DNA of 64,000 bases from Nitrospiraceae bacterium (GTDB taxonomy: Bacteria; Nitrospirota; Thermodesulfovibrionia; UBA6902): NCBI GenBank assembly GCA_003599505.1, contig QZKO01000045.1, forward strand, positions 2,535 through 66,534, given 5' to 3'. The stretch's first letter is position 1; each line of letters begins with the position of its first letter. The notes beneath the pieces are model-generated. The model searched no databases. It worked only from the letters and a program-made list of their open reading frames with translations, and was not told where the DNA came from. A program made the translations under genes and the position numbers. This document shows positions 31,589 to 64,000 of this stretch, one piece after another.

Positions 31589-34096
31589 TTATCCTTCTAA
31601 TCTTGCCTCAAGCTCCGATTTGAAATCTCTATAAGTCTTTTCTTTCAATTTCTTAAAGAATAAATCATAACTCATTGGAGATAGAAATTTGAAATAATAT
31701 TTATGTTCCTGTTGCAGTTCATTAAGCCTGTTAAAGTGTTTTCTTGAATATTCAAGTTTTTTCCTATTCTCATCCCCTGATATTCCTTCATATGCTTTAT
31801 CATCTTTAATTTCTACCACAAGAATATCATTCAATATTTTTATGAAAAAATCAGGATTAAAACTCCCCTGCTTAGGATGCTCGCCTTTACGCCAGGAATA
31901 ATCAATCTTGTAAAAGCCTATATCAGGAGATTTAAACCATGCATCAATTATTCTGGAATTTTCTTCTTTGATTAGGCCCTTGATAAATTTTCGTTCAGGC
32001 TCATAAGCAGCCAATATTATATTCAGGTGCGTTTTGAAGTTGTATCTGTTTGCCACTTTTATAATAGCTGATTTTGGTAAACTCTCATCTTCATCAAGTT
32101 CTTTCAAAAGCTTAATATCTTCTGCTTCTCCTAAAATCAAAGAGTTGTCATCAAAGAATATTGTCCCATCACGTCTAAGCGACCCAATGCCAATGCTATT
32201 TTTCTTAACTTTAGTAGTACTAATTTTATATGGTTCATTTGATTTTGGGACTATCCTTGGGAAGATACTACTCTTTCTCTTAATAACGCCAAATGCGCGC
32301 AATGCTTTCAATCTATTTTCCTCACTGATAAAACTTGTCTTATCTTTTATTTCCTTTAAAGATTGTTGGATAACTTGCTCAATCCGTTTTTTAGTCCATA
32401 TTTCACTGTAGTTAGTTCCTGCATCCTGATCAAAGATATACAGCCGGTTAAAGATATCATTAGCAACATTTTTCACGGGATGCATATTCCTTGCAATATA
32501 ATATTCCCGTTTTTCTCTAAATCCTGTTATTACTGTCTCATATTCTGTTTCTTCTGGTACGATTGCATCTTGACTTGAAAAAGTTATATATCCTTTCTTG
32601 AGCAACTCAAATTCGTCCTCTTTTGGATACTCCTTATTTTCTCCTATGACCTTCTCATAATCAATCTGGTATAAATCAAAGTTGTAGTTCTCTTTCTTAT
32701 TTACAGGATAAGAATGGATTCTTTTCTCAATCTCAAGAACTTCATCTACCAGGTGTTTGATACTGCCTGACCATTTATCATGATTGAAAACTGTGACAAC
32801 TGGCTGATCTCCCTTATAGACTTCAGGTATCCTTAACCCTCTTCCTAAGACCTGCGCAATAAGAAGTTTTGAATTAAACGCCCTTTCCTCATGTGGAACA
32901 ATTTGAAAAACATTTTTAACATCCCAGCCTTCGGAAAGCATACTGACAGAAGCAATCCACTCTACAGGATTGTCTTTATCGTCTACCCTTCGCAGAATCG
33001 GGATATTGTTCTTATGTTCATTGGCAGAAGTAACAATTAAAACCTTCTCTGCCGCTTTCTCTTTGCTGATCTTCTCCTGTTTAGCAAGAAAAGTTATCAG
33101 CTTATCAGTCACTCGTTTACAGGCTGCTATGTTCTTTGTAACAAGGATAGTTATGGGTTTTACTTTCCGATATTTTATTTTCTTGTTTTCAATATGATTT
33201 TCGTAAATTTTCTGAAACTTCTCGTCCTCGTTTCCTGATGAGTCTTCAGCTACATAACGGATGCTTTTAACAAACTTTGACTCAATAGAATCTCTCAAAG
33301 AAAAGCGATGGATTACATCCGTGAAATAGTCATCTCCGATGTAGCAGGTACCTGAAAGGTTCACGATAAACCTGAATCCATATTTAGTGTCAAGCAGAAA
33401 TTCCTTCCACTTTTTGAGCGCAGTATCCGATGGACTCATAAGGTGATGAGCTTCATCGTTCAAAATGAGTGTTCGCTCCCCTTCCCCTACAAGGCTGTCT
33501 TCAATTGCTGATTTGGTATTTATGTAAGTAGCGTGAATATTCTCAATGCATATATCGCCCTTTTGAATGGTGTTAGATGCATTGATAATGCGTGGATTGA
33601 TTATTTTGGAATCAGCAGGCAAAAGTTCTTTTAAAGTTTTATCGGCTGATAGTGTTCTGAATTTTTCTGTTAAACCGGTCTCAATAGTATTTGACGGGCA
33701 GAGGACTAAAACCTGATCAACTGCGCCCTCTGCAAGCATAAGACGTGCAATGCCGTACATCACATAGCTTTTGCCTGTAGCCGTAGCATGCTCCAAAGAA
33801 CACGAAAGTTTATCAGGCAATTGCAGATGGGTTACAAAATCATCAATCGATGAATACTTCTCCTGAAGCTTTGGATTTTTGTGGTAGTTTTCTTCTACTA
33901 AATCCATGAGGCTTTTGTATTCACCGCCTAAAAAGTAGCGCAACGTCTCCCTGATTGCCTCTTTTTGATATTCCCTATTCTCACAGAGAGCATCTAAAAA
34001 AGCTTCATACTTGTTTGGGTCAAACCTTTTGGGGTCATAGTTGGGAGATATCTTGAGGACTAAATCTTTGTTTTGAAAAGTTTGACGGTCAAGCAT
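31589..34096 (-). CDS. res: Type III restriction enzyme Res subunit (SF2 helicase + PD-ExK nuclease)
   Basis: Walker A 'ATATGKSYVM', DEAH-box 'LILNDEAHHL' and a C-terminal 'NPDFFIKI...LVVEIKDDK' PD-(D/E)xK motif. AT-rich. Confidence 0.8.
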   Translation of the reverse strand: MLDRQTFQNKDLVLKISPNYDPKRFDPNKYEAFLDALCENREYQKEAIRETLRYFLGGEYKSLMDLVEENYHKNPKLQEKYSSIDDFVTHLQLPDKLSCSLEHATATGKSYVMYGIARLMLAEGAVDQVLVLCPSNTIETGLTEKFRTLSADKTLKELLPADSKIINPRIINASNTIQKGDICIENIHATYINTKSAIEDSLVGEGERTLILNDEAHHLMSPSDTALKKWKEFLLDTKYGFRFIVNLSGTCYIGDDYFTDVIHRFSLRDSIESKFVKSIRYVAEDSSGNEDEKFQKIYENHIENKKIKYRKVKPITILVTKNIAACKRVTDKLITFLAKQEKISKEKAAEKVLIVTSANEHKNNIPILRRVDDKDNPVEWIASVSMLSEGWDVKNVFQIVPHEERAFNSKLLIAQVLGRGLRIPEVYKGDQPVVTVFNHDKWSGSIKHLVDEVLEIEKRIHSYPVNKKENYNFDLYQIDYEKVIGENKEYPKEDEFELLKKGYITFSSQDAIVPEETEYETVITGFREKREYYIARNMHPVKNVANDIFNRLYIFDQDAGTNYSEIWTKKRIEQVIQQSLKEIKDKTSFISEENRLKALRAFGVIKRKSSIFPRIVPKSNEPYKISTTKVKKNSIGIGSLRRDGTIFFDDNSLILGEAEDIKLLKELDEDESLPKSAIIKVANRYNFKTHLNIILAAYEPERKFIKGLIKEENSRIIDAWFKSPDIGFYKIDYSWRKGEHPKQGSFNPDFFIKILNDILVVEIKDDKAYEGISGDENRKKLEYSRKHFNRLNELQQEHKYYFKFLSPMSYDLFFKKLKEKTYRDFKSELEARLEG

Positions 34097-34100
34097 AATT

Positions 34101-34613
34101 TCATTTCACCTCTGACCTGAAATCAGCTTTGTGTATACCCGCTTGTATTCTTTTTCTTGCTTCTTCAAAAGATTTCGTATCAGTTGAAGGAGAAAATTGA
34201 ACTATCAGATTGTATTTCTCTCGTAACCGCTTAACATTATGATAAAACTCTTCTTCTGAATAAAAATCTTTGAAAGTTTCATGTAACGATCTTGCTTCAT
34301 GTATTAATACTGTAAAATTCTTAGCAGCAAATAGGTGGTCTTTCGACTTTTTATCGTGTTCTAAAAGAATGTTTAGGATCGAAACTATACCTGAAAATAT
34401 AGTAACCCACGAAATCCAATTAGGCATTCCTAAAATCAAGGCAAAGGCACTCAAAACTGTAATTGCTGGCGGTACAAATTTATACCAAAAAGCTTTTCTG
34501 GAAAGCTTTTTCTCTATAATATAATGGGTTTCGGCAGTATAATTAGAATCTTCCTGAATCTGGTTACATTCTGCTATTAAGTTTTCAATTTTATTATTAT
34601 TCATGGTAAGCAC
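34101..34613 (-). CDS. SLATT-like 2-TM effector protein
   Basis: 170 aa with an N-terminal helix, a central pair of TM helices ('FVPPAITVLSAFALILGMPNWISWVTIFSGIVSILNILL') and C-terminal helices, the topology of SLATT domains. Overlaps the SMODS gene by 17 nt and ends 4 nt before the res start. Confidence 0.55.
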   Translation of the reverse strand: MLTMNNNKIENLIAECNQIQEDSNYTAETHYIIEKKLSRKAFWYKFVPPAITVLSAFALILGMPNWISWVTIFSGIVSILNILLEHDKKSKDHLFAAKNFTVLIHEARSLHETFKDFYSEEEFYHNVKRLREKYNLIVQFSPSTDTKSFEEARKRIQAGIHKADFRSEVK

Positions 34614-35547
34614 TTACGGGAAATGGAGCATCAAAAAGCTTTCTCCATGCCTCAATGGCTTCATTGTCACTCATAGCAAAAGTTTTTTTACAATGCTCAG
34701 CGATCTTATCAAACAACGTCGAGAGTCCTTGTTTTTCGGTTATAGACATATATCCGTCAGAAGAAGGAGATTTGCTTGCAGGTATATTTGCGGCTTTTAA
34801 AACTTCATCTTTACCCAGCAAGAAAAAATTATAAACTAAACTTGGATAATTAATTTGCCATTTTTGTTCTTTATAATAGTTAATTATAATTAAGATCAAA
34901 GATGCTGCTATCACTTCAAGATGATAAGATTTCATCATAGGGAATAGATTTCTTTTAGCAGCCTTAAGTATTTTAATTATAGGGATGAGATACCCATCAC
35001 TATTTTCATTTGATGATGCGATATGTTCCGCATCATAGTCATAATCAGCTATGACCCATTTATTATTTTTAGGAATCCAGTAACCTCTCCCTACCGGAAG
35101 AGTCGAAGTTCCATCAGGAGCTTTACCTATTTGATCAAGATACGCAGGAACAAGCTCAACTTTTACATTATCTTCATATTCAAAAGTTATTGTGGGATTA
35201 TCAGTCTCTACACCAAGTTTTTCATACGTTCCATGCTCAGTTACAATATCTTCTATCTTCTCCAGTGCATCTTCCGGTTTTATACCACCAGAAGGCAACC
35301 AGTTATAGAAGCTTCCTAATATAACCAATATATCAATATCAAAAATATCTTCCGACCATGGCTGTATTCTTGTCTTTCTTTGCAATGATCCGATCAATTT
35401 CGTCTCAATGGTTGAATCATATGATTCAATCCATTCCCTGATTGCATTGTGATGTGTTGTTACCTCTTCTTGGAAACTTTGGCTTAACTCAAGTTTTGAC
35501 TTGAACAGATTAAAAGCTTGAGTTATATTTAGAGCCATATTTATCAC
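34597..35547 (-). CDS. SMODS-family nucleotidyltransferase (CD-NTase-like second-messenger synthase)
   Basis: Pol-beta-type NTase signature '[23 protein letters not shown]' (GS-x14-DxD) and third acidic strand 'KVELVPA'. Overlaps the mod stop by 4 nt (ATGA). Confidence 0.65.
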
Positions 35548-37522
35548 TTCCTCCCAAAATCTTTTAAACTTTTTATTTCCCGCTTCTCATTCCCAAATAT
35601 ATCAATGTAAATAATCATGACTTGCCCTTTGACTTTATCGTCAACAAACCTCACCTCATAGTCGTTCTTCTTTAAATCCTCTGCGTAAAAAACTTCGTCA
35701 AGGTCAAAAACTTCTCCGTCAAAATCATAGTCCAGCATGACCATTGAAAGTGTCTCAAGGTTGGCAAATTCAACAGGTTTGCGGGAGATAATTCTGCTCT
35801 CAAACTTTTCAATCTTAATGACGCATTCTTTTATCTTCTGATTCAGCAGATCAGGATTTTTAGGTTTATCCAGATAATATTTGCACTCGACTGTCGGCAC
35901 CTGAACAAAGTCAAATCCTACAGCATCCACCGTATCATTGACATCCATTTCACTTACCGGTTGTTTTATCTTGGTAAATCCACGATTATGGATTTCCTCA
36001 ATAATGGAATAAGGGATGCGGAGAACAAAATATTTTGATTTTCCCTTAGCAATATAATCTTCAAGGAATTGTACCGAGGCAGCGGGTACGACGATGAAAA
36101 AGCGCCTGCCGATTTTGTCTCCAAGATACTTGTGTAGATCATCAATAAAGCCCCTGTCTAACATGGCATTTTTATATTTCTGGTAATTGAAGACAAGGAC
36201 GCTGTCCTCTCCAAGATAGCCATCGAGTTCAATCTTTGAAATCTCATGTTTTTCATCTCGGCACTGAAAGAGCTTTAATGCAAAGTCCCGATACTCCTCC
36301 CATGGAAGTCCTTTAAGCATTTTGTAATCGTAAAGACCTGCATTATAAAGAGTGAAAGGGTTACACTGCTTGCTGAATTTCTTTTTTGGATTCTCAAGGT
36401 CTTTGCTTTCACCAATGTTCAAAAAACGCTTTTGCATTGTATAAATTGCCAGCTTTCCACAGTCCACACCGATCCAACTCCTGCCGAGTTTTTCTGCAAC
36501 AGCAAGGGTAGTTCCTGAACCGGCAAAGCAGTCAAAAACAAGGTCGCCGGGGTTTGAAGAGGCTTTGATGATGCGTTGGAGCAAGGCTTCAGGTTTTTGG
36601 GTAGGGTAGCCAACCTTTTCAGTAGAAGTCGGGATTTGTTGAAAAGACATAATATCGTCCCAAACATCTCCGATAGCTTTTCCTTTTTCCATCACTTCAT
36701 CTAAATAACGTCTGCCACCTCTCCCGTCAAAATATTTCCTGCCGTCCTTATCTACTTTGTTGAATCTATCTATATATTCTTGTCGATGCTGGACGGCGAG
36801 TTTATTAAACATAAAGTCGTTGTTTTTAGCATAAAACAATAGAACATCATGACCTCTAATCCAGTTTTCAGCCTGCGTTTTAAATCCAGAGAGAACGCGA
36901 GTGTCCCAAACTACTTCTCTCTGGAAATGTTGTTCACCAAAAACCTCGTCTAAGAGAATCTTTATGTAGTGCCCTTTTTTTTCATCCAGATGCACATAAA
37001 TACTTCCATCTTCGCTCAATAACTCCTTCAAGCCCAAACAAGTCGCTTTCGTAAGAACTCCAGAAACCTCGCCCCTGCAATTTTGTCCTGATATGCTTTT
37101 TGATCCTGACTTCCACGAAACTCCTGCTTTGTTGCAAAGGGAGGATCAATATAAATTAATCTTACGCCCAGTGTGCCGTCAGCATTTTTGAGTTTTCCTT
37201 TATCCTTCATCTGCAAGAGGGTCTTCAACACTTGAAGGTTGTCGCCAAAGATGAGCATGTTTGTCCAACCGTTGCCGTTTTTACCATTCCGGAAGGTTTT
37301 TACTTTCTGCAAAGGCACAGCCATTGTATCAGCAAGGATATCTTCCTCACGATCCTTGTCGGAATAAATTAGCTCGTACTCTTTCTTGGTATCAAAGAGG
37401 AGGGAATGTTTAAGATTATTAAGCTGCGATATGAGGGCGTCTTTATGCTCTTTTGATAGCGGGTTACCTTTTACAAGAAGGCTTACAATTTCTTCAATAG
37501 CATTATTGGATAGTGTTCTCAT
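35544..37522 (-). pseudogene. mod: Type III R-M modification methyltransferase (Mod, N6_N4_Mtase family), disrupted by a -1 frameshift
   Basis: N-terminal fragment 37028..37522 carries 'IYIDPPFAT' (motif IV, DPPF). C-terminal fragment 35544..37037 carries 'YPTQKP...[15 protein letters not shown]' (motif I). The fragments overlap in different frames. Adding one T to the T3 run (plus-strand AAA at 37036-37038) restores a continuous '[24 protein letters not shown]' reading frame. Confidence 0.7.
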
Positions 37523-47271: not shown

Positions 47272-50200
47272 TTACATCTTATTATATTTTTTATACAAAT
47301 CTCTCAAAAATTCATAACCCTTCATCCCGTAAATATTACATAGGTTATCAGCATCTTCTTTATGTCCATTAATGTAGAGTTTTTCAACTATTGAGCGGAT
47401 GTGCTCTTGTCTGAAATCAGTGATAAAATGTTCAAGCATTTTCAGCAATATCTTCCCGATATAGGCAATGCTTGCAGGATCGTCGAATTTATCGAGGTAT
47501 TCAATGATGAAGGACGAATGATAATCTTCGTTTGCGAAAGGGGCTGCCAGCATCAGCCACTGTGAATATTCCTCATGAATATATGGAAGGTAAATTGCCA
47601 ATTTTCCAAGGGCGGACAATATTTTCTTGTCATCAGAGCTTATATCTTCCTTAGGTTTTGTCTTATATTTATTATCATAGATCCACTTCCAGCAATAGAT
47701 AATTTTATCGACGATTTTCCGGCTCTCTTCTTTTCCATCCTCAATCTGTTTCTGGTTTGACCAGAAAAAGCTGACAACATTCAATATTTGTTCTCGATTC
47801 CAAGCATCTAAAACATTCCTGAATAAACTTTCAGGGTTGCTTATATCCTCATTCCCAAGCAAATATCCCAGGGCTATGTGCTGCACCAAATGTTCAATAT
47901 CATGTTTATTCTTAAATTCATATGTTATCCCAAGTTTATAGTGAGGGATCATAAGGTTGTAGAGATCATCGTAAACTTTGCCGATCGACAAGTAACCATC
48001 CATGAAAGCTACCCAGTACTTATCAACTGTAACCGGGTACAAACCTTTGATTCTTTCTTCGGCCCATGCTTTGTCCAAATAGAACAAATTAGGCAGATAT
48101 CGACCAAGGAAAGTGTAACTCTCAATAATCTTCTTTTCTAAAAGCTCATCATATTTCCCCTTAATCTTCGAACTCCATTTTATTTCCGCTTCAACACCAG
48201 CTCTATCATTGGTACGAGCAATCCTCAAAGCGAGATTTATGAATGCGGACAATGTCTTCCCATGCGAAGAATTTAAAGCATGAGTTACATAATCCGACTT
48301 TTCCTCTTCTTCCTCTGCTTTCAGATTATCAAAGATAAGAAACAGGATTTGTTCTGCTTTCTTTAAATACTTCTCATCAAACGCCCATGAATCATCTCTC
48401 GTTCCTTCTCGTATAAAGTCTGTGATTACACCAATTATCCAGAAATGATTGGCTCCGCCGAGAAAATCCTCTTTTTCAACTATGAATTCATCTTTCCAAA
48501 ATTCATTCCTATCAATATATAGGTGCAGAAATTCAAATAATTTACCCCAGGCAATATCCAGCTTTTTACTCCATGCTTCCTTTGCGCCATCAAGAATTTC
48601 ATAAATATATATAAATCCGGTGTTGATGAATGGAGATAAGTTGTCGATAAATTTATTTGGCTGCTCAGCAGCACATTCTTTTATTAATTTTGCCAATCCC
48701 CCTACGGTAGGGCCTTCTTCCCAAAGACCCGTTGATGATTTAAACTCCTTGAGGTAAGAAGGAAGTTTGTTTGTGGTCAACATATGCAAAATATCTTCTT
48801 TTGTTAAAGGCGAAGTCCCCCAACCAGATCGAATTTTAATCTCTCCCATGGCCGCGTGTAAGCCCACATCCCAGCCAGTTTGAGACTTAAAAGATTCATA
48901 TAATTTTTTAAATTCCGGAAATCTTACAAGTGCCTGACATCTTTGCTGTTTCCACTCTGCAATGTGTCTTTCTGCATCTTTCGCAGGAACAAATCCGGGG
49001 CCATCATTCAGTTTCCTGAATATTAATTCTTTTTGATTAGATGATAGTTCTAATAAATTCTCTAAAACATGTTTCAACTCGTCTCCGAAATCTATTTCTC
49101 CGAAAACAAGATTATCTGAATCCTTTTCTAATGCATCCCAGAATACTTCACTATATTTGTTGACATTATTTCCAATGATATATAGGGCCATCTTCGGAAA
49201 ATAAAAATATTTATCCCTAAAAAAGTCTTGCAATATTTTTTTTGTTTCAGCGGCATGTTTCCATGCCCTTGCCATTAGAATACTTTTCAAGACAAATGTA
49301 AGTACCTCAAGCGGGTCTGTAAGGTGGTTTCTTGATTCATCATAAAAACTTGCATGTGTTTCCTCATCATGAAAGTTGCGATATAGCCTATAAATATTTC
49401 TTTTTAATTCTTTTATATCTATACTCTTAAGCAGCACATCTTTTGTTAACTCATCAAATACGTTAGATGAGAAGTTGTCTAATGTAGTCTCATCCATTGT
49501 TATTTTCTTAAGTGGTGTTCCTCCCAGTTTCTTCTTCCTGAACACATATTCATAAACATCAGACTCAGTCTTATAACCCATATCAAAAAGCTTTACTGAA
49601 TATTTAGCGTCAATAGATGTAAGCGCTAACAGATATGCTTTATCCCCTGCCTCAAAAGGAATTAATGATTCATCTTTTTTCAGTAAAGTGTGTATCTTGT
49701 CACATAAAGGATATATAGCGCCATTTGTACACTTTTCTCCAATATCTCCAGAGAGTTTTTCAAATATAGTCTTTACCCAATATGAATCTATAACAAGTTT
49801 ATATTCCTCTTCTTTGTTATAGATTCGGGCTCTCTCTTCGGACAACTTAACAGACTTTATGTTAGTTATATAATCAACAATCCGTTCAGCTTTAGTAATA
49901 TCCTTATGGGAAGGATTTCCAGACAGGAATTTAGGCAATAATTTGAGGCCAATTTCTGATCCCACAAACGATGCATCAAACCTGGAACTAAGCCAAACAG
50001 GAATTAACTCAATAATATAAATCGGTATTTCTTCTCTCGGAATATTAAGCAAGATTGATACAAAACTTCGCCATGTATAGTAGTTATCTATATGTTGACT
50101 ATCTGAGTTTTTATAATTTGAAACAGCGTTAATGATTTGGAGTAACTCATCTATATACTTTTTATTACCTTGTTTATTGACTTGCTCGGACACCTTTTCT

Positions 50201-50457
50201 AAATAAGTGAGAACATTCCACCAGGGGATTGAATAAAACCCTTCTTGATCAGAGGGCTTAGGACCAGGTGCATTTTCAGCGGAAAAATAATTTTCTTTTT
50301 TGAGAATATGAAACCATTCAATATTGGTAACATTCTTAAAAAAATAATTATTATATGAATCTTCTTTTATAAGATCCACGACTTGCTGACTTAAATTGCC
50401 AGTGCCAATAGCATCATCAATGATTTTAACTTGCTTATAATATTCAGACTTAGTCAT
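47272..50457 (-). CDS. Large (1061 aa) predicted all-helical protein of unknown function, translationally coupled partner of the SIR2-like protein
   Basis: Long uninterrupted ORF with K/E/Y/N-rich composition, AT-rich DNA and no recognisable catalytic motif by eye. Its start overlaps the SIR2 gene stop by 8 nt. Confidence 0.6.
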   Translation of the reverse strand: MTKSEYYKQVKIIDDAIGTGNLSQQVVDLIKEDSYNNYFFKNVTNIEWFHILKKENYFSAENAPGPKPSDQEGFYSIPWWNVLTYLEKVSEQVNKQGNKKYIDELLQIINAVSNYKNSDSQHIDNYYTWRSFVSILLNIPREEIPIYIIELIPVWLSSRFDASFVGSEIGLKLLPKFLSGNPSHKDITKAERIVDYITNIKSVKLSEERARIYNKEEEYKLVIDSYWVKTIFEKLSGDIGEKCTNGAIYPLCDKIHTLLKKDESLIPFEAGDKAYLLALTSIDAKYSVKLFDMGYKTESDVYEYVFRKKKLGGTPLKKITMDETTLDNFSSNVFDELTKDVLLKSIDIKELKRNIYRLYRNFHDEETHASFYDESRNHLTDPLEVLTFVLKSILMARAWKHAAETKKILQDFFRDKYFYFPKMALYIIGNNVNKYSEVFWDALEKDSDNLVFGEIDFGDELKHVLENLLELSSNQKELIFRKLNDGPGFVPAKDAERHIAEWKQQRCQALVRFPEFKKLYESFKSQTGWDVGLHAAMGEIKIRSGWGTSPLTKEDILHMLTTNKLPSYLKEFKSSTGLWEEGPTVGGLAKLIKECAAEQPNKFIDNLSPFINTGFIYIYEILDGAKEAWSKKLDIAWGKLFEFLHLYIDRNEFWKDEFIVEKEDFLGGANHFWIIGVITDFIREGTRDDSWAFDEKYLKKAEQILFLIFDNLKAEEEEEKSDYVTHALNSSHGKTLSAFINLALRIARTNDRAGVEAEIKWSSKIKGKYDELLEKKIIESYTFLGRYLPNLFYLDKAWAEERIKGLYPVTVDKYWVAFMDGYLSIGKVYDDLYNLMIPHYKLGITYEFKNKHDIEHLVQHIALGYLLGNEDISNPESLFRNVLDAWNREQILNVVSFFWSNQKQIEDGKEESRKIVDKIIYCWKWIYDNKYKTKPKEDISSDDKKILSALGKLAIYLPYIHEEYSQWLMLAAPFANEDYHSSFIIEYLDKFDDPASIAYIGKILLKMLEHFITDFRQEHIRSIVEKLYINGHKEDADNLCNIYGMKGYEFLRDLYKKYNKM

Positions 50458-51316
50458 TTGTTGTCCTCATGTCATCTTCTACTCCGAGCTTTACGGTTTT
50501 AAAATATTTTGTTATCCAATCTTCTAATACGATAGGGAATGTATTACGCTTACCATATATTATTGATTCAATTCCGTTTAGTTCTTTGAATACTGTCAAG
50601 GTTGATGAATTAAACAGATTAGACATATCTTCTTCCGGCAATAATAAAAAATGATATTTATTATTATCATTTGTCTCTTGCATTATATCCAATATCTCCC
50701 GATCCCTTAAACCGTAACCAATAAATATGACACAATATTTTTTAAACAAGCTTTTTAAAAATCTCCGAAATGATGCTTCACGATATCTGGGTATATATTG
50801 TTCTCTCGTCAGCAAACTCTTTTCAAGATCATATTCGGATCCATGTATATGAAAAATACCTGAACTATTTAAGTTTGTCTCAATAAAATGTTCTGTTTTG
50901 TAGTATATTTCACTTAAATTAAATTCCTTTGTATTTTCTAAGCAGTTATCTATATTAGTGGTAATTATTTGAGGAAAGGGAGTAATCAGTTTCAATAGTT
51001 TTATAACAGGAAAATATTTTTCTGGATATAATTTTACATCGGGAACTAAAGCTTCTCGGACTATCCCCCAATATGTGTTTTCATTACCATTTCTTTTAAA
51101 TATATTGAAGCAATAATTTAGAATTTTTTCATTTTCCATGTCACCAATTAGTTCTTCTTTCTTAATTCCGCTTTCTTGTATTTCAATGTGATCAAGCATT
51201 TTTTTTGCAACAGAGTCCCAATCATAACAACCGGCTATCTTAGAAAGACCTGCACCTATAAATAGCGCACATTTATTATGTTTAATATATGGTAATACAG
51301 CATTCAATCTTTCCAT
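50450..51316 (-). CDS. SIR2_2-family (defence-type sirtuin-like, predicted NADase) protein
   Basis: 'CALFIGAGLS' (NAD-binding Gly-rich), 'IITTNIDNCLE' (TTNYD-like), 'IFHIHGS' and 'VIFIGYGLRD' match the SIR2_2 signature of ThsA/DSR-type defence proteins. Confidence 0.7.
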   Translation of the reverse strand: MERLNAVLPYIKHNKCALFIGAGLSKIAGCYDWDSVAKKMLDHIEIQESGIKKEELIGDMENEKILNYCFNIFKRNGNENTYWGIVREALVPDVKLYPEKYFPVIKLLKLITPFPQIITTNIDNCLENTKEFNLSEIYYKTEHFIETNLNSSGIFHIHGSEYDLEKSLLTREQYIPRYREASFRRFLKSLFKKYCVIFIGYGLRDREILDIMQETNDNNKYHFLLLPEEDMSNLFNSSTLTVFKELNGIESIIYGKRNTFPIVLEDWITKYFKTVKLGVEDDMRTTND

Positions 51317-58085: not shown

Positions 58086-58183
58086 TGGCGGGAGCGTGTG
58101 GGAATCGAACCCACCATGCTCACTTGTGGCAAGCAACACCGGATTTGAAGTCCGGGAGGGACACCAGAACCCTATACACTCCC
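58086..58183 (-). tRNA. selC: tRNA-Sec (anticodon UCA)
   Basis: Minus-strand sequence GGGAGTGT...CCCGGACTTCAAATCCGG...GTGGGTTCGATTCCCACACGCTCCCGCCA. It has an 8-bp acceptor stem, anticodon loop CU-UCA-AA, a long variable arm, T-loop TTCGATT and encoded CCA. Length is about 98 nt. Confidence 0.75.
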
Positions 58184-58787
58184 ATTATTGGTTTTTAAGG
58201 ATAATACCCTGGGATAACTGCTCCCGGAAACTATTGTAGCAAAATCGCGGTAATTGTCCAATAGCCGGTCTTTGTGTAAAATGTAGGCGACCCTCTTGCC
58301 TCCTCCCTGCCGGGAGAGGGCAAGACCATAGCAGCTTTAATACAAAAAGAACTTTCGATGTTGAAGGGAGCGATTGTCGTTGCTAAACTGGAGACCGCTG
58401 TCAATGAGATAAGAGACAGGACCGGTAAGTCGGTAGATGTTTCAAAGAAAAATATAGATAAGAAACTTTACCAGGCGATTCAGGGATGGGATTCTCTGGA
58501 ACGAAAAGATGTCGAGCAACTGTTTGCTGATGATATTCTTGTGCTGACGGATTCGGAGGAGATAAGGGTGATCAAAGAATTGCGGAAGAAAAAAGGAGCA
58601 ATATAACATTTGTGAATTTCAGGTCAAAAACAGTGATTTCCATTTGATCGAAGTAATGTTCTTTATGAGATAAAGATAGAGAGTAAATATGGAGTGAGCC
58701 TTAACTTCGCGCCGATCTCAGGAAAGAAATGTTTAGGCTCAGCAATCTTGATTGAAAAAAGACAACCATTCCGGCTAAACTTGCATT

Positions 58788-59603
58788 GTGAATTCACAAT
58801 CAACTAACGATCAGGAATATCTAACAGTTGTCTTGAATGCCATACGTGTTTGCGCTGATTACCGGCCTAAACTGGGGCACAGCGCAAAGGATGGATACAC
58901 CCTTCAGCAATTTCAGGAGATGTACAGAAATGACCCATTTTATAGTTGGGTGGGTCTCGACAATCCGCTGATGTACGCCGCACATAAAGCAGCCGGCGGT
59001 ATGACAAGCATCTATCGCCAGATTGGAATCGGGTGCGAGAATTTGTTTCGCAAGGTTCTGCAGGATTCGCTGAATCTTACCGAAGATGATGTCAAATGGT
59101 CATACACCGTTAAGAAAGGCCGTGGGAAAACCCGTACCCTTTCTTTAGATGCGCGAATTCAGACCGATATCGTACCTGATCCGAAAGCAAAGACTCGAAT
59201 ACAGTCATGGATAGCCCAAAGCGCTAAGTCGCTGGATGTCAATGACCGTATTGCCTCATCACTCCAGGGAATCGTCTTTGAAGTGCGGCAAGGTTATAAG
59301 AGCAAGGATTCAAAGCGGCAAAACGCTGATATTGCCAATGCTGCTACCGCCTATACAAAAGGTTATCTTCCCTGTGTTGCCATCTTGTCCTTGCAGATCG
59401 ATGAAGCCATTGCCTTACGATATCGTAACGAAAAGTGGATGCTCCTTACCGGGAGCGTTGCGGGGGAATCTCCACTAACGTCAATTTATTCCTTTATGAG
59501 TGAAGTCATCGGCTACGATCTCGCCGCATTCTTCCAACGGCATTCTGATATTCTCAAGGCCGAAGTCAATAACGTGCTTACTAAACTACTTTCAACAAAA
59601 TGA
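58788..59603 (+). CDS. Putative Type II restriction endonuclease (partner of the downstream MTase)
   Basis: 271-aa protein with no clear family motif. Its stop overlaps the MTase start by 4 nt. Assigned by context only. Confidence 0.4.
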   Translation: MNSQSTNDQEYLTVVLNAIRVCADYRPKLGHSAKDGYTLQQFQEMYRNDPFYSWVGLDNPLMYAAHKAAGGMTSIYRQIGIGCENLFRKVLQDSLNLTEDDVKWSYTVKKGRGKTRTLSLDARIQTDIVPDPKAKTRIQSWIAQSAKSLDVNDRIASSLQGIVFEVRQGYKSKDSKRQNADIANAATAYTKGYLPCVAILSLQIDEAIALRYRNEKWMLLTGSVAGESPLTSIYSFMSEVIGYDLAAFFQRHSDILKAEVNNVLTKLLSTK

Positions 59604-60865
59604 CGACCTTTCTTACTACAAAGCACTACTCTCAAAGGCAGAACGCCCATCTTACGTTTAAACACAATTTAAAACATGGGCGGCATGGCTGGTTAAGATT
59701 AACTCCGGCTTATTCAGTCAAACTCGTTTCTGACATTCTTGCCGACAAGACGCCGGACGCAAAAGTCATTGATCCTTTTTCCGGCACCGGCACAACGCCG
59801 CTTTGTGCTACCTACCTCGGCCTTAAAAGCACCGGCTTGGAGATCAACCCATTCCTTGTGTGGTTCAGCTCTGTTAAAGCAAGAATGTTTAATCCCACAG
59901 TTATTCAGACAACTCAAGAACTTGGCGTAAGCATTGCGGAAGCCTCATCCTCTCCCAAGAGTCTAAAGCTTGACCCGCCGCCGATTCACAACATTTCCCG
60001 ATGGTGGGACAAAGAGGAATTGGAATATCTTTGCAAACTTAAAGCCTGTATTTGCGATGCAACGAAGGACATGACCGGGGAACGTGACCTGCTCTTGGTA
60101 ACCTTTTGCAGAACTGTGATTGCTCTATCAAATGCTGCTTTCAACCATCAATCCATGTCGTTCAAGAGCAATGATAATCGCCCCGGGTTATTTGACAGTC
60201 AACTCAACCATTCCAGTGTGTTCCGTAAGGAGCTTGCTTTTGTCCTTGAAGGCGCAGCCGACAACCCGAACACCACCGCTTGCATCATTACGGGAGATGC
60301 CAGGCAGCCCTCGCGCTATGTGAGGGACAAATACGATATCTTAATTACCTCTCCACCTTACCCTAACCGCATTTCCTACATTCGGGAAATGCGGCCTTAC
60401 ATGTACTGGCTTGATTATCTCACCAATGGCAGGGATGCCGGCGAACTCGATTGGCAGGCCATAGGCGGCACTTGGGGAATTGCAACCAGCAGGCTTACAG
60501 ACTGGAAACCCTCTGAAAACGCCTTCGTCCCTAAAGCGCTGAAAAAGGCAATTAGCGGAATATCCAGACAGGAAAACGCTAACGGTGTGTTGCTTGCCAA
60601 CTATGTATCTAAGTATTTTGACGATATTTGGCATCACATTAAAGATGTTCCGAAAGTGCTGAATGACTGTGCTGAAGTACATTACATTGTCGGCAATTCG
60701 TCATTCTACGGTACCCTTCTGCCGGTTGAGGAAATATACAAAGATATGCTTGAGCAGGCAGGATTCAAAGACGTTCAGATTTTACGTATCCGCAAACGCA
60801 ATTCAAAGGCGGAACTATTTGAATTCGATGTGACCGGTAAAAAATCGAGAAATAAATCCATGTAA
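59600..60865 (+). CDS. DNA methyltransferase (N6_N4_Mtase family; N4-cytosine or N6-adenine specific)
   Basis: 'VIDPFSGTGTTPLCA' (motif I, FxGxGTT) and 'ILITSPPYPNRISY' (motif IV, SPPY). Confidence 0.8.
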   Translation: MTTFLTTKHYSQRQNAHLTFKHNLKHGRHGWLRLTPAYSVKLVSDILADKTPDAKVIDPFSGTGTTPLCATYLGLKSTGLEINPFLVWFSSVKARMFNPTVIQTTQELGVSIAEASSSPKSLKLDPPPIHNISRWWDKEELEYLCKLKACICDATKDMTGERDLLLVTFCRTVIALSNAAFNHQSMSFKSNDNRPGLFDSQLNHSSVFRKELAFVLEGAADNPNTTACIITGDARQPSRYVRDKYDILITSPPYPNRISYIREMRPYMYWLDYLTNGRDAGELDWQAIGGTWGIATSRLTDWKPSENAFVPKALKKAISGISRQENANGVLLANYVSKYFDDIWHHIKDVPKVLNDCAEVHYIVGNSSFYGTLLPVEEIYKDMLEQAGFKDVQILRIRKRNSKAELFEFDVTGKKSRNKSM

Positions 60866-61051: not shown

Positions 61052-62227
61052 TCAAAATGGTAGCACATCTCGCACTAAATACTTCAGAAATTTCGCACTT
61101 GTAGCTGCCGCAAATGATCGATCTATATCAGTTTTGTCCCTGGTCCGATCCATAATCGATTTAACTATAATGGCCTTTGATATCCCGTCGCCCACCGTTT
61201 TGCATGCACGAGCAACAGAATAACTTTCCATATCAACAGCAATAGACTTTCTGTCAGCAGGTGAAATAAGCTCTTTAAATCCGTCCGATTTGTTGAGTAC
61301 GATAGTACCACAAGCCATGGGTTCCATATGAACATTTATGCGCTGGTCACTATATCGCTTAGCCCTGCTCGGATCGTCCTTTTCAACAGATAAGCATAGA
61401 TCTTTTTTACTATCATTAATTTGCTGCAATATTGTTGTATCAATTTCACAGCTTGCGATCTCAGCCTCAAACCCTTTATCCGTCAGTTTTCCCTTCTGGT
61501 AAAGAAAAAGCTTAGTTGCAATAACTATATCGCCCATTTTTATTTTCTTATTATCAGGATTGCCGCCACATACACCAGTCATAGCCATATATTTAGGCGA
61601 GCTTTTTACTATTAATTCAGCCGTAAGGATTCCTGCATCCACTATTCCTGTCTCGGCAAGATAACCGGCAAGAACTTTAATGTTATGCCCCCTTTTTGAG
61701 ACCAACTCTCCACTGTAAAGAATTTTTGTCTCTGTCGAATGAGCGTCGTCTTTCCTTAAGTTGAATTCTTTACTAAGGTTTTCAAATTCATCATCGAAAG
61801 TCGCAGTCAAAATTGCAAGATCGAATATCTGCGGGCTGGTCACTTCTAATGCGGTTTTTGTGTTAACGGGAAATTTGTTGACTTCTTCCTTTTTCAAAAG
61901 GTGCAATGCATACACTTTGACGTTCTTTATTTCGTCATTCCTTTTAAGATCGCTTCTGGTTAGAAATTGAAATATCAATCTATTACTATATTTCTTTAAT
62001 TGATCCGCAAGAGGCTCTCCAGGATACGGCGGCTGCCTGTAGCCCGCATCAAGATGAACCCAAACACGGAACCGCGCGTTGTCTCCCATGATTCCCAAGA
62101 AATCTGTAAATTTTCTTATGTCTGTAAACGTAAGAACATTTAATTCCAGGCTACGCAAATAATTTTCATATTGTCTTATATCATCATCGGCTTTGCTGAT
62201 AATGAAAAAATCCCATATTTGTGACAT
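61052..62227 (-). CDS. Receiver-like domain fused to PNP_UDP (MTA/SAH-nucleosidase-like) phosphorylase domain (Detocs DtcC-like effector)
   Basis: N-terminal 'FFIISKADDD...RVWVHLDAGY' resembles a REC domain (Asp pocket). The C-terminal 'AMTGVCGGNPDNKKIKMGDIVIATKL...AVDMESYSVARAC...KAIIVKSIMDRT' matches the PNP_UDP_1 nucleosidase fold. Confidence 0.6.
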   Translation of the reverse strand: MSQIWDFFIISKADDDIRQYENYLRSLELNVLTFTDIRKFTDFLGIMGDNARFRVWVHLDAGYRQPPYPGEPLADQLKKYSNRLIFQFLTRSDLKRNDEIKNVKVYALHLLKKEEVNKFPVNTKTALEVTSPQIFDLAILTATFDDEFENLSKEFNLRKDDAHSTETKILYSGELVSKRGHNIKVLAGYLAETGIVDAGILTAELIVKSSPKYMAMTGVCGGNPDNKKIKMGDIVIATKLFLYQKGKLTDKGFEAEIASCEIDTTILQQINDSKKDLCLSVEKDDPSRAKRYSDQRINVHMEPMACGTIVLNKSDGFKELISPADRKSIAVDMESYSVARACKTVGDGISKAIIVKSIMDRTRDKTDIDRSFAAATSAKFLKYLVRDVLPF

Positions 62228-62248
62228 CTGATCCTCCTTAATTAATAT

Positions 62249-63928
62249 TTACGTGCGATTTAATAATCTCAATTCAAAGCGTGGTGCCGAATCGAGATTA
62301 TCCATACGAAATCGTCCATTAAATTTCTCTGCAGATTCTTTAATCAACGGGATGCCATGTCCCTCACGATAATCATCTGGAAAAGCTTTGTTTTGTTCAA
62401 TCGTAAAGATGACGAATCCTTCTTCTTTATAGACGTTACAACTGCAAGTCATATTTTCATTCTTCAACGCGTTATTGATAAGTTCTTCAAAAATTCCTCT
62501 TAAACATTCCTTGAAAATAAAAACATAGTCTTTATTTTCTATTAACAGTTTAGAATCATCAATGGCAATATTTTTATCATTTATTCTTGTGAGCATGCTG
62601 TCCTTTACCTTTTTCCAAGTGCCAATTAAATCTACGCGTTCATTTTTTCTGATAAGTTCAGCAAAGGAACCTTTTTGAGATATAACATCGACTTTCAAAG
62701 CTACCAAAGATTCTCGCAGTCTTAGCATGCAATCTTTAAGATGGGCTTCTCTGCCAGTCAACTCTTGAATTAATGCAAAATTATGATCAAGCCGAGCAAA
62801 TAGTTTACATACCGAATTATCTGCTTCAAAGAAGGTTGAGTACAATCTCGGGAAATTGCGCTTTAAAAAATCATTATTATTAAATGATTCAATAAAAACG
62901 TCAATTATCCCTCTAATGTCATTCATTAGTGCTCTATATTCTTTTGAAAACTCTACTAAATCAAACTCGGTTGCTTCACGATTTAAAAAAATCAATAAAT
63001 CTATTAAATCTTTTTCAATTTGAGAATGGTCTGAAGTTAGTATGCCCTCTTTATTAAAAAAATCTACCACACTATTAAATGCCGCCTCAAAAGAACTGCT
63101 ATTCTTAATGATATCGTATGTTTTATATATTTCTTTTAAAATGTTCCAACTATATGTCTTTTGTCCGTTGGTTTCCTCTAAAGCAGTTCTCACCTCATCA
63201 ATTAAATAGGACAAGTTCTTTTGTGATGCGCTTTCAGTATTATTATTTACAATGTCATTCCACAAGATGTAAGCCAAATAATCAAGAGCGCCATTATCAT
63301 CTGCCGCATAAATAAAAATACTTTTCAGAGTCTCCGCCTTATAAAATTCGTGAGAGTTTATAACATAATGAAACCTCAACAACTCTGCCTTTTTCCATCG
63401 GTTATGAATATCTGGCAAACCGTTGCTATAAATTATTTTCGATATGACATTTCTTAGCTCAAGCTTAAGTTCCGGCAAGAATTGATTAATTGAGTTCATA
63501 AGCTGTGGCTCATGCAATAGGACAGCCATAAAAATTTCAAACGTGTCTGTAGTTATTGCAATTTGCTGAAATTCATTTAAGTAATCAGAAAATAATCTGT
63601 ATGTTTCCAGCTTCCCCAATTTGTCTCTAAGCAAGTATGCCTTCTTTAGGTCTATACCGACTGGCAAATAATCGGGGCTTCCACGATAGATGCCTTTATG
63701 GTCTTCTCCTATGTCGTTATTATCATTCAGCGGTGCCCCAGCAGTATCATATTCCTGTAAACCTCTTAGTCTATATGTTAAATATTTCATAACTGATTTT
63801 GGAGGGCTTGGAGCCCGCCTCCTAATACTAATTAACTGGCGTTTTTCCTCACAGAAAGGACACGATGAGCGCGCCGCATAATTTGGAATATGCAAATTAA
63901 CCCCAAAGAATATTTCAATGGGGACCAT
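62249..63928 (-). CDS. Histidine-kinase-like protein with large N-terminal sensor region (Detocs DtcA-like)
   Basis: C-terminal HATPase_c motifs 'ELINNALKN' (N-box) and 'GHGIPLIKESAEKFNGRF' (G-box). A candidate H-box is 'REAHLKDCM'. Lies 21 nt upstream of the REC-PNP gene on the same strand. AT-rich. Confidence 0.55.
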   Translation of the reverse strand: MVPIEIFFGVNLHIPNYAARSSCPFCEEKRQLISIRRRAPSPPKSVMKYLTYRLRGLQEYDTAGAPLNDNNDIGEDHKGIYRGSPDYLPVGIDLKKAYLLRDKLGKLETYRLFSDYLNEFQQIAITTDTFEIFMAVLLHEPQLMNSINQFLPELKLELRNVISKIIYSNGLPDIHNRWKKAELLRFHYVINSHEFYKAETLKSIFIYAADDNGALDYLAYILWNDIVNNNTESASQKNLSYLIDEVRTALEETNGQKTYSWNILKEIYKTYDIIKNSSSFEAAFNSVVDFFNKEGILTSDHSQIEKDLIDLLIFLNREATEFDLVEFSKEYRALMNDIRGIIDVFIESFNNNDFLKRNFPRLYSTFFEADNSVCKLFARLDHNFALIQELTGREAHLKDCMLRLRESLVALKVDVISQKGSFAELIRKNERVDLIGTWKKVKDSMLTRINDKNIAIDDSKLLIENKDYVFIFKECLRGIFEELINNALKNENMTCSCNVYKEEGFVIFTIEQNKAFPDDYREGHGIPLIKESAEKFNGRFRMDNLDSAPRFELRLLNRT

Positions 63929-64000
63929 TCGGATTTCTATTTTGTGCGAACCAGCTTCTTCTTTTATATAGTCTGCTCTTATTTGATGTATCCTTGAAAA

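Follow-up and report, generated by a model that had tools for sequence, protein, structure and literature searches.

The 64,000-nucleotide stretch of contig QZKO01000045.1 from a Nitrospiraceae bacterium analysed here (hereafter the window) closes with two adjacent genes on the reverse strand, gene A and gene B (Table 1). Together they look like an undescribed anti-phage module, a variant resembling the defence system Detocs, in which a giant sensor protein is paired with an effector made of a CheY-like domain and a purine nucleoside phosphorylase (PNP)-family nucleosidase. Gene B is complete and identical to the NCBI entry 'MAG: hypothetical protein C4526_07190 [Nitrospiraceae bacterium]'; its ATG is preceded at a distance of 7 nt by the sequence AAGGAGG, and the short spacer with this strong Shine-Dalgarno motif implies an operon-like coupling of the two genes. 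Homologues were retrieved down to E-values of 1e-70 for gene A and 2.6e-91 for gene B and, given these values and the conserved gene order described below, the feature is far beyond chance.

Table 1. Coordinates of the features at the gene A/gene B locus and its surroundings (positions of the window; aa, amino acids; ORF, open reading frame; PRTase, phosphoribosyltransferase; MTAN, methylthioadenosine/S-adenosylhomocysteine nucleosidase; AF2, AlphaFold2)
Feature	Position	Strand	Remarks
Gene A, 3' part	62249..64000	-	about 583 C-terminal codons of giant sensor protein; frame open to base 64000
ORF in gene A (559 aa)	62249..63928	-	
PRTase-like domain 2, C-terminal strands	63896..64000	-	Pfam Pribosyltran and AF2 model
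All-helical region of gene A	62576..63859	-	P0001 residues 120-547; AF2 model
Conserved His, candidate phospho-His	63026..63028	-	H397 of P0001, residue 301 of the 559-aa ORF; codon verified
Histidine-kinase-type catalytic (CA, Bergerat-fold) domain	62261..62566	-	N-box E578 and N582, Q608 replacing the G1 Asp, G2 G621
Intergenic spacer, 21 nt	62228..62248	-	contains Shine-Dalgarno AAGGAGG
Gene B, complete, 391 aa	61052..62227	-	receiver-like N-domain and PNP-family nucleosidase effector
CheY-like (beta-alpha)5 N-domain	61868..62227	-	gene B residues 1-120
His58, C-terminal tip of beta3	62054..62056	-	invariant; strand 52-58 in model
Thr90-Arg91, end of beta4	61955..61960	-	T90 aligns with CheY T87 (hhalign)
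PNP_UDP_1 / MTAN-fold nucleosidase domain	61064..61819	-	E147, E334, D360 kept
D360, catalytic-Asp equivalent of gene B	61148-61150	-	
DNA methyltransferase	59600-60865	+	PADLOC MTase_II 1.1e-24
Type II restriction endonuclease	58788-59603	+	PADLOC REase_II 7.3e-83
tRNA-SeC gene	58086-58183	-	ARAGORN; left edge of island

The giant putative sensor protein and its kinase-like C-terminus

The initial annotation of this locus had treated the 559-aa ORF as a complete protein. The frame of gene A, nonetheless, stays open upstream of the first ATG of this ORF as far as the window edge, and a complete 559-aa kinase was for this reason rejected. Only one database protein matches gene A, P0001 (JGI, contig of 67,092 nt; 100% identical), which is 655 aa long, reaches 96 residues beyond the ORF and is itself N-truncated, having no starting Met and beginning inside a PRTase domain at VLIIDDGSCTGETL. 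Among 1.84 billion representative proteins a search retrieved 146 relatives, nearly all of 1,560-1,880 aa, to the last ~650 residues of which P0001 aligns. Judged from these alignments, what is present of gene A encodes the final third of a giant of roughly 1,700 aa, which is truncated by the window and likewise by the contig end. When both window proteins and P0001 were looked up by exact sequence, nothing was returned by which the contig might be extended, and no exact match to 50 nt of the window edge turned up among metagenome contigs; nor was any relative found when P0001 was compared with plasmids by tblastn or when viral contigs were scanned with the giant-family alignment. The gene A tail and four full-length giants matched no model of PADLOC v2.0.0, and NCBIfam returned weak PRTase matches alone for the giants, with no family name. 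Neither a paper nor an entry of Pfam, NCBIfam or PADLOC was found in which the giant family is described, and the literature on PDC-M60, on PRTases combined with histidine kinases and on conflict systems was not found to describe the architecture.

In full-length giants, PRTase-like domains occur twice, around residues 770-840 and 1050-1100, in place of a tetratricopeptide repeat (TPR) region, for which these proteins gave no match; the window copy being truncated, the absence of TPRs is a statement about its homologues. Their loops for phosphoribosyl pyrophosphate (PRPP) read D757..STG and DDGSxTGxT, and D757, S760, T761 and G762 of the first loop as well as D1005, G1007 and G1011 of the second are invariant or near-invariant in the giant-family alignment. 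In the copy studied here the PRPP loop VLIIDDGSCTGETL of the second domain lies ~100-140 nt past the window edge. The Pfam model Pribosyltran was matched by P0001 residues 22-65 with E 4.9e-4 and 19.9 bits, under the curated cutoff of 26.3, and the AF2 model of P0001 (mean pLDDT, the predicted local confidence score, 83.6) places an alpha/beta unit at residues 1-107. Pfam PRTase matches of the giants are mostly weak as well (best 27.3 bits vs the cutoff of 26.3), and purine PRTase models of NCBIfam reach ~1e-8, the first domain resembling purine PRTases. The N-terminal ~400 residues of the giants contain motifs like those of GHKL ATPases (E..N..H, DxGxG and RGL); a profile of this region found no match among PDB sequences, so that both the GHKL and the STAS-like reading of the giants' N-terminus stay at the level of motifs.

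A profile of the last 300 residues found its best matches among PDB sequences in histidine-kinase catalytic domains, with the N-box and the G2 box aligned (AdeS, 4.6e-4; DesK, 5.4e-4; VanS, 5e-3; YycG, 0.018). The N-box Asn, N582, is present in 100 of 102 relatives, with K/R585 and H/Y586 also kept, and the G2 Gly, G621, in 97. The G1 motif DxGxG has become [QN]-[ND]-x: at position 608, the column of the G1-box Asp, the relatives have Q (59), N (32) and rarely D (2), that is, Q or N in 91 of them. The C-terminus of gene A is thus, as far as the profile matches and the AF2 model can tell, a kinase-type ATPase domain at the level of fold, though an atypical one. The HATPase_c domain of the initial annotation survives in this sense, as a histidine-kinase fold, and not as the Pfam family, which went undetected together with HisKA, nor with its G1 Asp. 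A further conserved residue precedes the catalytic domain, H397, which is His in 89 of the 102 relatives and invariant in 35 full-length giants; H397 and N582 correspond to H1368 and N1555 of the family alignment, both invariant or near-invariant.

The effector, its relatives and their genomic setting

The C-terminal part of gene B matches Pfam PNP_UDP_1 over residues 137-388 (E 1.8e-10), as had been proposed from the first. E147, E334 and D360 are invariant and align to the MTAN catalytic motifs, D360 at the position of the catalytic Asp (which D353 would fill in DtcC, the Detocs effector), and the closest solved structures to the domain are MTA/SAH nucleosidases. In PADLOC gene B matched PDC-M60C (1.9e-34) and the PN-superfamily effector of the cyclic-oligonucleotide-based anti-phage signalling system (CBASS; 2.2e-12), both across the PNP domain only, so that a PADLOC check gave defence models for gene B and none for gene A. 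The MtnN equivalog scored 48 bits on gene B vs a cutoff of 169, and all NCBIfam matches fell far under their cutoffs; on these scores the PNP domain is not a housekeeping MtnN, in agreement with the initial annotation.

The receiver-like N-terminus of gene B proved more ambiguous. By its predicted structure it has a CheY-like fold, and the position of its residues was examined across 28 effectors associated with giants. His58 is conserved in 28/28 and a Thr or Ser at position 90 likewise in 28/28, followed by Arg91 in 26/28; Asp16 is found in 17. Among the five residues typical of receivers the Thr/Ser column alone is conserved (28/28), and neither the acidic pair of beta1, nor an acceptor Asp, nor the Lys of beta5 is conserved across the 28 sequences. 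The acceptor column, located by hhalign and by a spacing of 30 residues to Thr90, falls at residues 60-61, and is itself not conserved, with G in 12, N in 6 and D in 4 of the sequences. Gene B of the window does have an Asp60, exactly 30 residues before Thr90, which is the spacing of D57 and T87 in CheY. Because local pLDDT is ~65 and the next loop varies in length, the exact equivalence of His58 and CheY Asp57 is ambiguous; His58 is at the acceptor site or within 2-3 residues of it. A simple receiver (REC) hidden Markov model (HMM), built from five textbook receiver sequences, did not detect the giant-associated N-domains. The N-domain of gene B is therefore a CheY-like fold and not a canonical receiver: of the receiver-like N-terminus initially described, the fold was retained, while neither a Response_reg match nor conserved active-site residues could be found. 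The His/Thr/Arg cluster of this domain, together with the N-box Asn and the conserved His of gene A, looks from residue conservation like a phosphate-handling site.

A pattern-limited scan of one genome per species, covering 185,579 species genomes, yielded 30 related loci, 28 of them labelled as Bacteroidota lineages; the distribution is sporadic. Immediately after the giant, all 30 have a gene of ~300-520 aa (in one locus a contig end interrupts it, and two loci are degraded), and in about 22 this second gene is PNP-like. In the others the shared kind of N-domain precedes different domains: a CAP12/Pycsar-type Toll/interleukin-1 receptor (TIR) domain (L023, L033), a DpnII/MboI-type restriction endonuclease also matching models associated with prokaryotic Argonaute (pAgo) proteins (L010), or a match to the CBASS 'Peptidase' effector model at 1e-45 to 1e-50 (L008, L017, L028). 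Killing domains swapped behind a constant regulatory domain are a signature of defence systems. In four of eight sampled loci, moreover, a type I HsdR gene adjoins the pair (L011:14322-16604; L032:14659-17820; L020:16847-20074; L034:4353-7409), and in L011 and L032 it begins just where the PNP gene stops, which gives the impression that the pair had been inserted into a type I restriction-modification (R-M) operon. The synteny, the swapped effectors matching CBASS, Pycsar and pAgo-associated models and the frequent R-M neighbours point strongly to defence.

The same evidence bears on an ordinary purine- or methionine-salvage operon, in which a PRTase protein and an MTA/SAH-type nucleosidase would act together with no defence role. 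The nearest solved structures of the PNP domain and the likeness of the first PRTase-like domain to purine PRTases (E ~1e-8) would suit such an operon; the replacement of the nucleosidase by TIR, peptidase and restriction-endonuclease domains behind the same N-domain, the MtnN score, the AT-rich stretch with adjoining R-M genes and the sporadic distribution all speak against it. It is extremely unlikely in our estimate, and the MtnN scores and the effector swapping were taken as grounds for rejecting it.

Several related loci showed features of their own. In L024 (L024:2339-15328) the giant is split by three copies of a repeated, insertion-sequence-like cassette of 136-, 119- and 536-aa genes, in L035 (L035:7734-11723) it is shattered into many small ORFs, and the giants of L026, L027 and L032 are broken into at least two pieces; these broken giants suggest frequent inactivation. 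A third gene of ~180 aa directly follows the PNP gene in some loci (L015:14434-14973; L020:14490-15041; L027:14524-15078; L030:14560-15105); it has weak matches only, mostly to membrane-protein families, and has no counterpart in the window. A 1,699-aa ORF lies directly upstream of the giant in L025 (L025:2151-7250) and matched neither PADLOC nor the giant-family HMM.

Two-gene modules of a sister family were also found. At L001:1938-4515 a 451-aa kinase-like protein (NCBIfam histidine kinase, 5.9e-8) without PRTase domains is paired with a REC-PNP protein, and at L002:239-6661 the partner of a REC-like-PNP protein is 1,519 aa long and has one PRTase-like domain followed by CxxC; this second giant gave no PADLOC match. 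The PNP domains of this type are 38-48% identical to that of gene B. Their N-domains (P0004-P0017, loci L001-L004) are more receiver-like, with DxD, T and K, and with Glu at the acceptor column according to hhalign, by which an Asp acceptor in these domains was rejected; the kinase-like partners of L001 and L002 in turn keep a D-[DN]-G G1 box. Kinase-like and receiver-like partners, on this comparison of residues, change their key positions together across module types. Since the L001 pair has no PRTase, the kinase-like/REC-like pair would be the conserved signalling core. A weak match of the L001 451-aa protein to a SIR2 model (PADLOC, E 5.9e-4, no stretch passing alone) was treated as noise. 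The L002 giant is preceded by an overlapping gene for a BglII-type endonuclease.

In the window, both genes of the pair were correctly noted as AT-rich, the GC content of their stretch being 0.35-0.39 vs ~0.47-0.52 over most of the window, and the adjoining type II R-M pair was likewise recovered, spanning 58788..60865 and convergent with gene B. Low GC content, the R-M pair and the tRNA-SeC gene indicate that genes A and B belong to an island-like stretch running off the window. An 82-aa ORF without a family match lies between the tRNA-SeC gene and the R-M pair (58358-58606). Two other AT-rich regions occur on the reverse strand. The first (31589-37037) encodes a ResIII/SNF2-type helicase-nuclease (835 aa), an N6_N4 DNA methyltransferase (497 aa) and a SMODS nucleotidyltransferase (316 aa, Pfam 2.9e-17); its layout resembles that of a type III R-M system with a second-messenger synthase gene wedged between helicase-nuclease and methyltransferase. 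The second (47272-51316), the most AT-rich part of the window with a GC content of 0.30-0.39, holds a SIR2_2 protein (288 aa, 1.1e-21) overlapping a 1,061-aa protein at the start of the latter, for which Pfam gave no match; the two are probably another defence pair.

Relation to Detocs and other defence systems

Detocs is a dtcA-dtcB-dtcC operon whose MacSyFinder rule requires all three genes; the acceptor of VaDtcC is D58, its PNP domain spans residues 140-387, and cleavage of adenine nucleotides was shown for the CBASS effector Cap17 and for DtcC (Rousset et al., 2023; 10.1101/2023.01.24.525353). Like Detocs, the module combines a kinase-type protein with a following CheY-fold domain fused to a PNP domain of the same size and layout, its effector is modular, the PNP being replaceable by other killing domains, and its context is that of a defence island; a PNP with a catalytic Asp, by which DtcC is characterized, is present in gene B (PNP_UDP_1, D360, E334, E147). 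Unlike Detocs, it has no gene for the DtcB buffer, either between the two genes or after them. As the initial annotation had noted, no small stand-alone receiver occurs in the window, and no stand-alone canonical receiver was found beside the giant in any of the 30 related loci either, the only two canonical receivers detected near giants lying more than 4 kb away; a missing DtcB is thus characteristic of the whole family and not peculiar to the window. The sensor differs as well: where Detocs has a TPR sensor kinase, the module has a giant of ~1,700 aa containing two PRTase-like domains, with Gln or Asn for the G1 Asp. The Pfam families HisKA, HATPase_c and Response_reg went undetected, and the effector family, in which no acceptor Asp is conserved, carries an invariant His together with a [TS]R motif.

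A genuine Detocs that has lost DtcB would still account for part of these observations. Gene A would autophosphorylate a His with ATP and pass the phosphate to Asp60 of gene B, thereby activating an ATP nucleosidase, and the layout of DtcA-DtcC, the similar domain sizes of DtcC (acceptor D58, PNP 140-387), the CheY-like spacing of Asp60 and Thr90 and the prediction of both a histidine-kinase-type CA fold and a CheY-like fold would all agree with it. We nevertheless regard this explanation as very unlikely, for the column of Asp60 varies (among 28 sequences, G in 12, N in 6 and D in 4), neither the beta1 acidic pair nor a beta5 Lys is conserved, the G1 Asp is absent, the giants have no TPR sensor, DtcB is absent from 30/30 loci, the published detection rule needs all three genes, and PADLOC recognized neither the gene A tail nor four full-length giants. 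The giant-effector pair is alike in the outline of its working and is not Detocs, as it falls outside the definition of that system. What had first been read as a possible two-gene Detocs variant has thus given way, because of the giant architecture, the lost phosphorelay residues and the missing DtcB, to a related arrangement. The features on which that first reading hinged were all encountered, namely a REC fold, a conserved His in the kinase-like protein and a PNP domain other than MtnN, and none of them contradicts it outright, while the canonical phosphorelay chemistry that it implied found no support; its architecture, the absence of DtcB and the R-M neighbour stood, and Detocs membership and the complete kinase did not.

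Other known systems share single elements with the module. Gene B resembles Cap17-type PNP effectors of CBASS in its match to the PADLOC PN-superfamily model (2.2e-12) and its catalytic Asp, but its regulatory domain is CheY-like, with no cyclic-nucleotide sensor domain and no adjoining cGAS/DncV-like nucleotidyltransferase (CD-NTase). Of the PADLOC models gene B matched PDC-M60C best (1.9e-34), a profile of similar length (407 positions); the match, however, is limited to residues 123-386, and no PDC-M60 model was matched by gene A or by the giants. The L001/L002-type modules have in common with the pair a kinase-like protein directly followed by a REC-like-PNP protein, and in L002 a giant in which a PRTase-like domain precedes CxxC, and differ by the DxD, T and K of their N-domain with Glu in the acceptor column, by their D-[DN]-G G1 box and by a partner of 451 or 1,519 aa. 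The PRTases known from defence (retron type III effectors, ShosT, Ophion OpnC) share the type I PRTase-like fold, the PRPP loop and the defence context, although in the giants the PRTase-like domains are internal sensor modules and not a stand-alone toxin. With respect to canonical pairs of histidine kinase and response regulator, the giant-associated N-domain keeps the Thr/Ser column of the receiver quintet and has neither the acceptor Asp nor the Lys.

Proposed mode of action

We hold it to be reasonably probable that the two genes form an anti-phage module acting by abortive infection, composed of a giant sensor and a CheY-fold-PNP effector. In a first step the giant would sense infection, with the PRTase-like domains as the best candidates for binding PRPP or a nucleotide. 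The kinase-like module at the C-terminus of the giant would then pass the signal on to the effector's CheY-like domain, as suggested by the conserved pairing, which is seen also in the smaller relative without PRTase. Finally the nucleosidase would be released and, by analogy with Cap17 and DtcC, convert ATP and dATP to adenine and ribose-5'-triphosphate, so that growth would stop.

The second step would not be a standard His-to-Asp phosphotransfer, since an acceptor Asp is not conserved and the G1 Asp is replaced by Gln or Asn. The form that we prefer is a nucleotide-dependent, non-canonical transfer or docking that would end at the pocket of His58, Thr90 and Arg91. That a phosphoryl group is placed on a His is a possibility we put forward tentatively; docking or a conformational switch alone seems doubtful, and a small phosphorylated ligand as the carrier of this step improbable. 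A more specific proposal, rather unlikely in our view, is that the invariant His at the tip of beta3, with the [TS]R pair behind it, is covalently modified, either by His-to-His phosphoryl transfer from the conserved His in the kinase-like module of the giant or through phosphoribosylation by its PRTase-like domains.

Signalling by a small molecule, with the effector domain as a nucleotide-responsive switch, is the chief alternative, with the PRTase-like domains of the giant making or binding a phosphoribosyl or nucleotide compound and the effector binding it at His58/Thr90/Arg91. The two PRTase-like domains with good PRPP-loop motifs, a His/Thr/Arg cluster typical of a phosphate-binding site and alternative effector domains that match models of cyclic-nucleotide-activated CBASS and Pycsar effectors are consistent with this, and for receiver domains in conflict systems a role as nucleotide-responsive switches that operate without histidine kinases has already been proposed (Kaur et al., 2021; PMC8195603). 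The L001 locus, where a kinase-like module accompanies REC-PNP without a PRTase, nonetheless puts the PRTase outside the conserved core, a small-molecule signal would not explain why the N-box Asn is invariant and why a His adjoining the kinase-type domain is conserved, and no cyclase or other known signal-generating enzyme is present; we consider such a route unlikely.

The proposed module of giant sensor and CheY-fold-PNP effector, in which the kinase-like domain conveys the signal, has to be weighed against a number of observations that do not favor it. Pfam HATPase_c and HisKA were detected neither in gene A nor in P0001 nor in the full-length giants, and Response_reg in neither protein of the pair. 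The G1-box Asp binds adenine in GHKL ATPases, and ATP binding by gene A is therefore uncertain, Gln or Asn taking its place in 91/102 relatives. H397, which precedes the N-box by 185 residues and begins a helix that follows a loop of low confidence in the AF2 model, does not form a canonical H-box; His58, though the last residue of beta3 in the model, stands 2-3 residues upstream of the acceptor column defined by hhalign and the Thr spacing. ATP as the substrate of gene B would follow from the analogy with Cap17 and DtcC only, and the copy of gene A, cut by window and contig, may be incomplete or non-functional.

If the module of giant sensor and CheY-fold-PNP effector is real, Detocs would represent one branch within a broader group of defence modules that share a kinase/receiver scaffold, and in the giant-effector branch the canonical phosphorelay residues would have been replaced jointly in kinase and receiver. 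The family would add a giant sensor architecture with two PRTase-like domains and an adaptor domain carrying PNP, TIR, peptidase or restriction-endonuclease effectors, and it would be a test case for the control of toxic enzymes by pseudo-receivers; it would also supply defence-finder tools with a missing Bacteroidota model. Should the His modification prove true, its chemistry would be one by which neither receiver domains nor immune effectors are known to signal, and the PRTase-like domains of the giant would sense phage-induced changes in PRPP or nucleotide pools.

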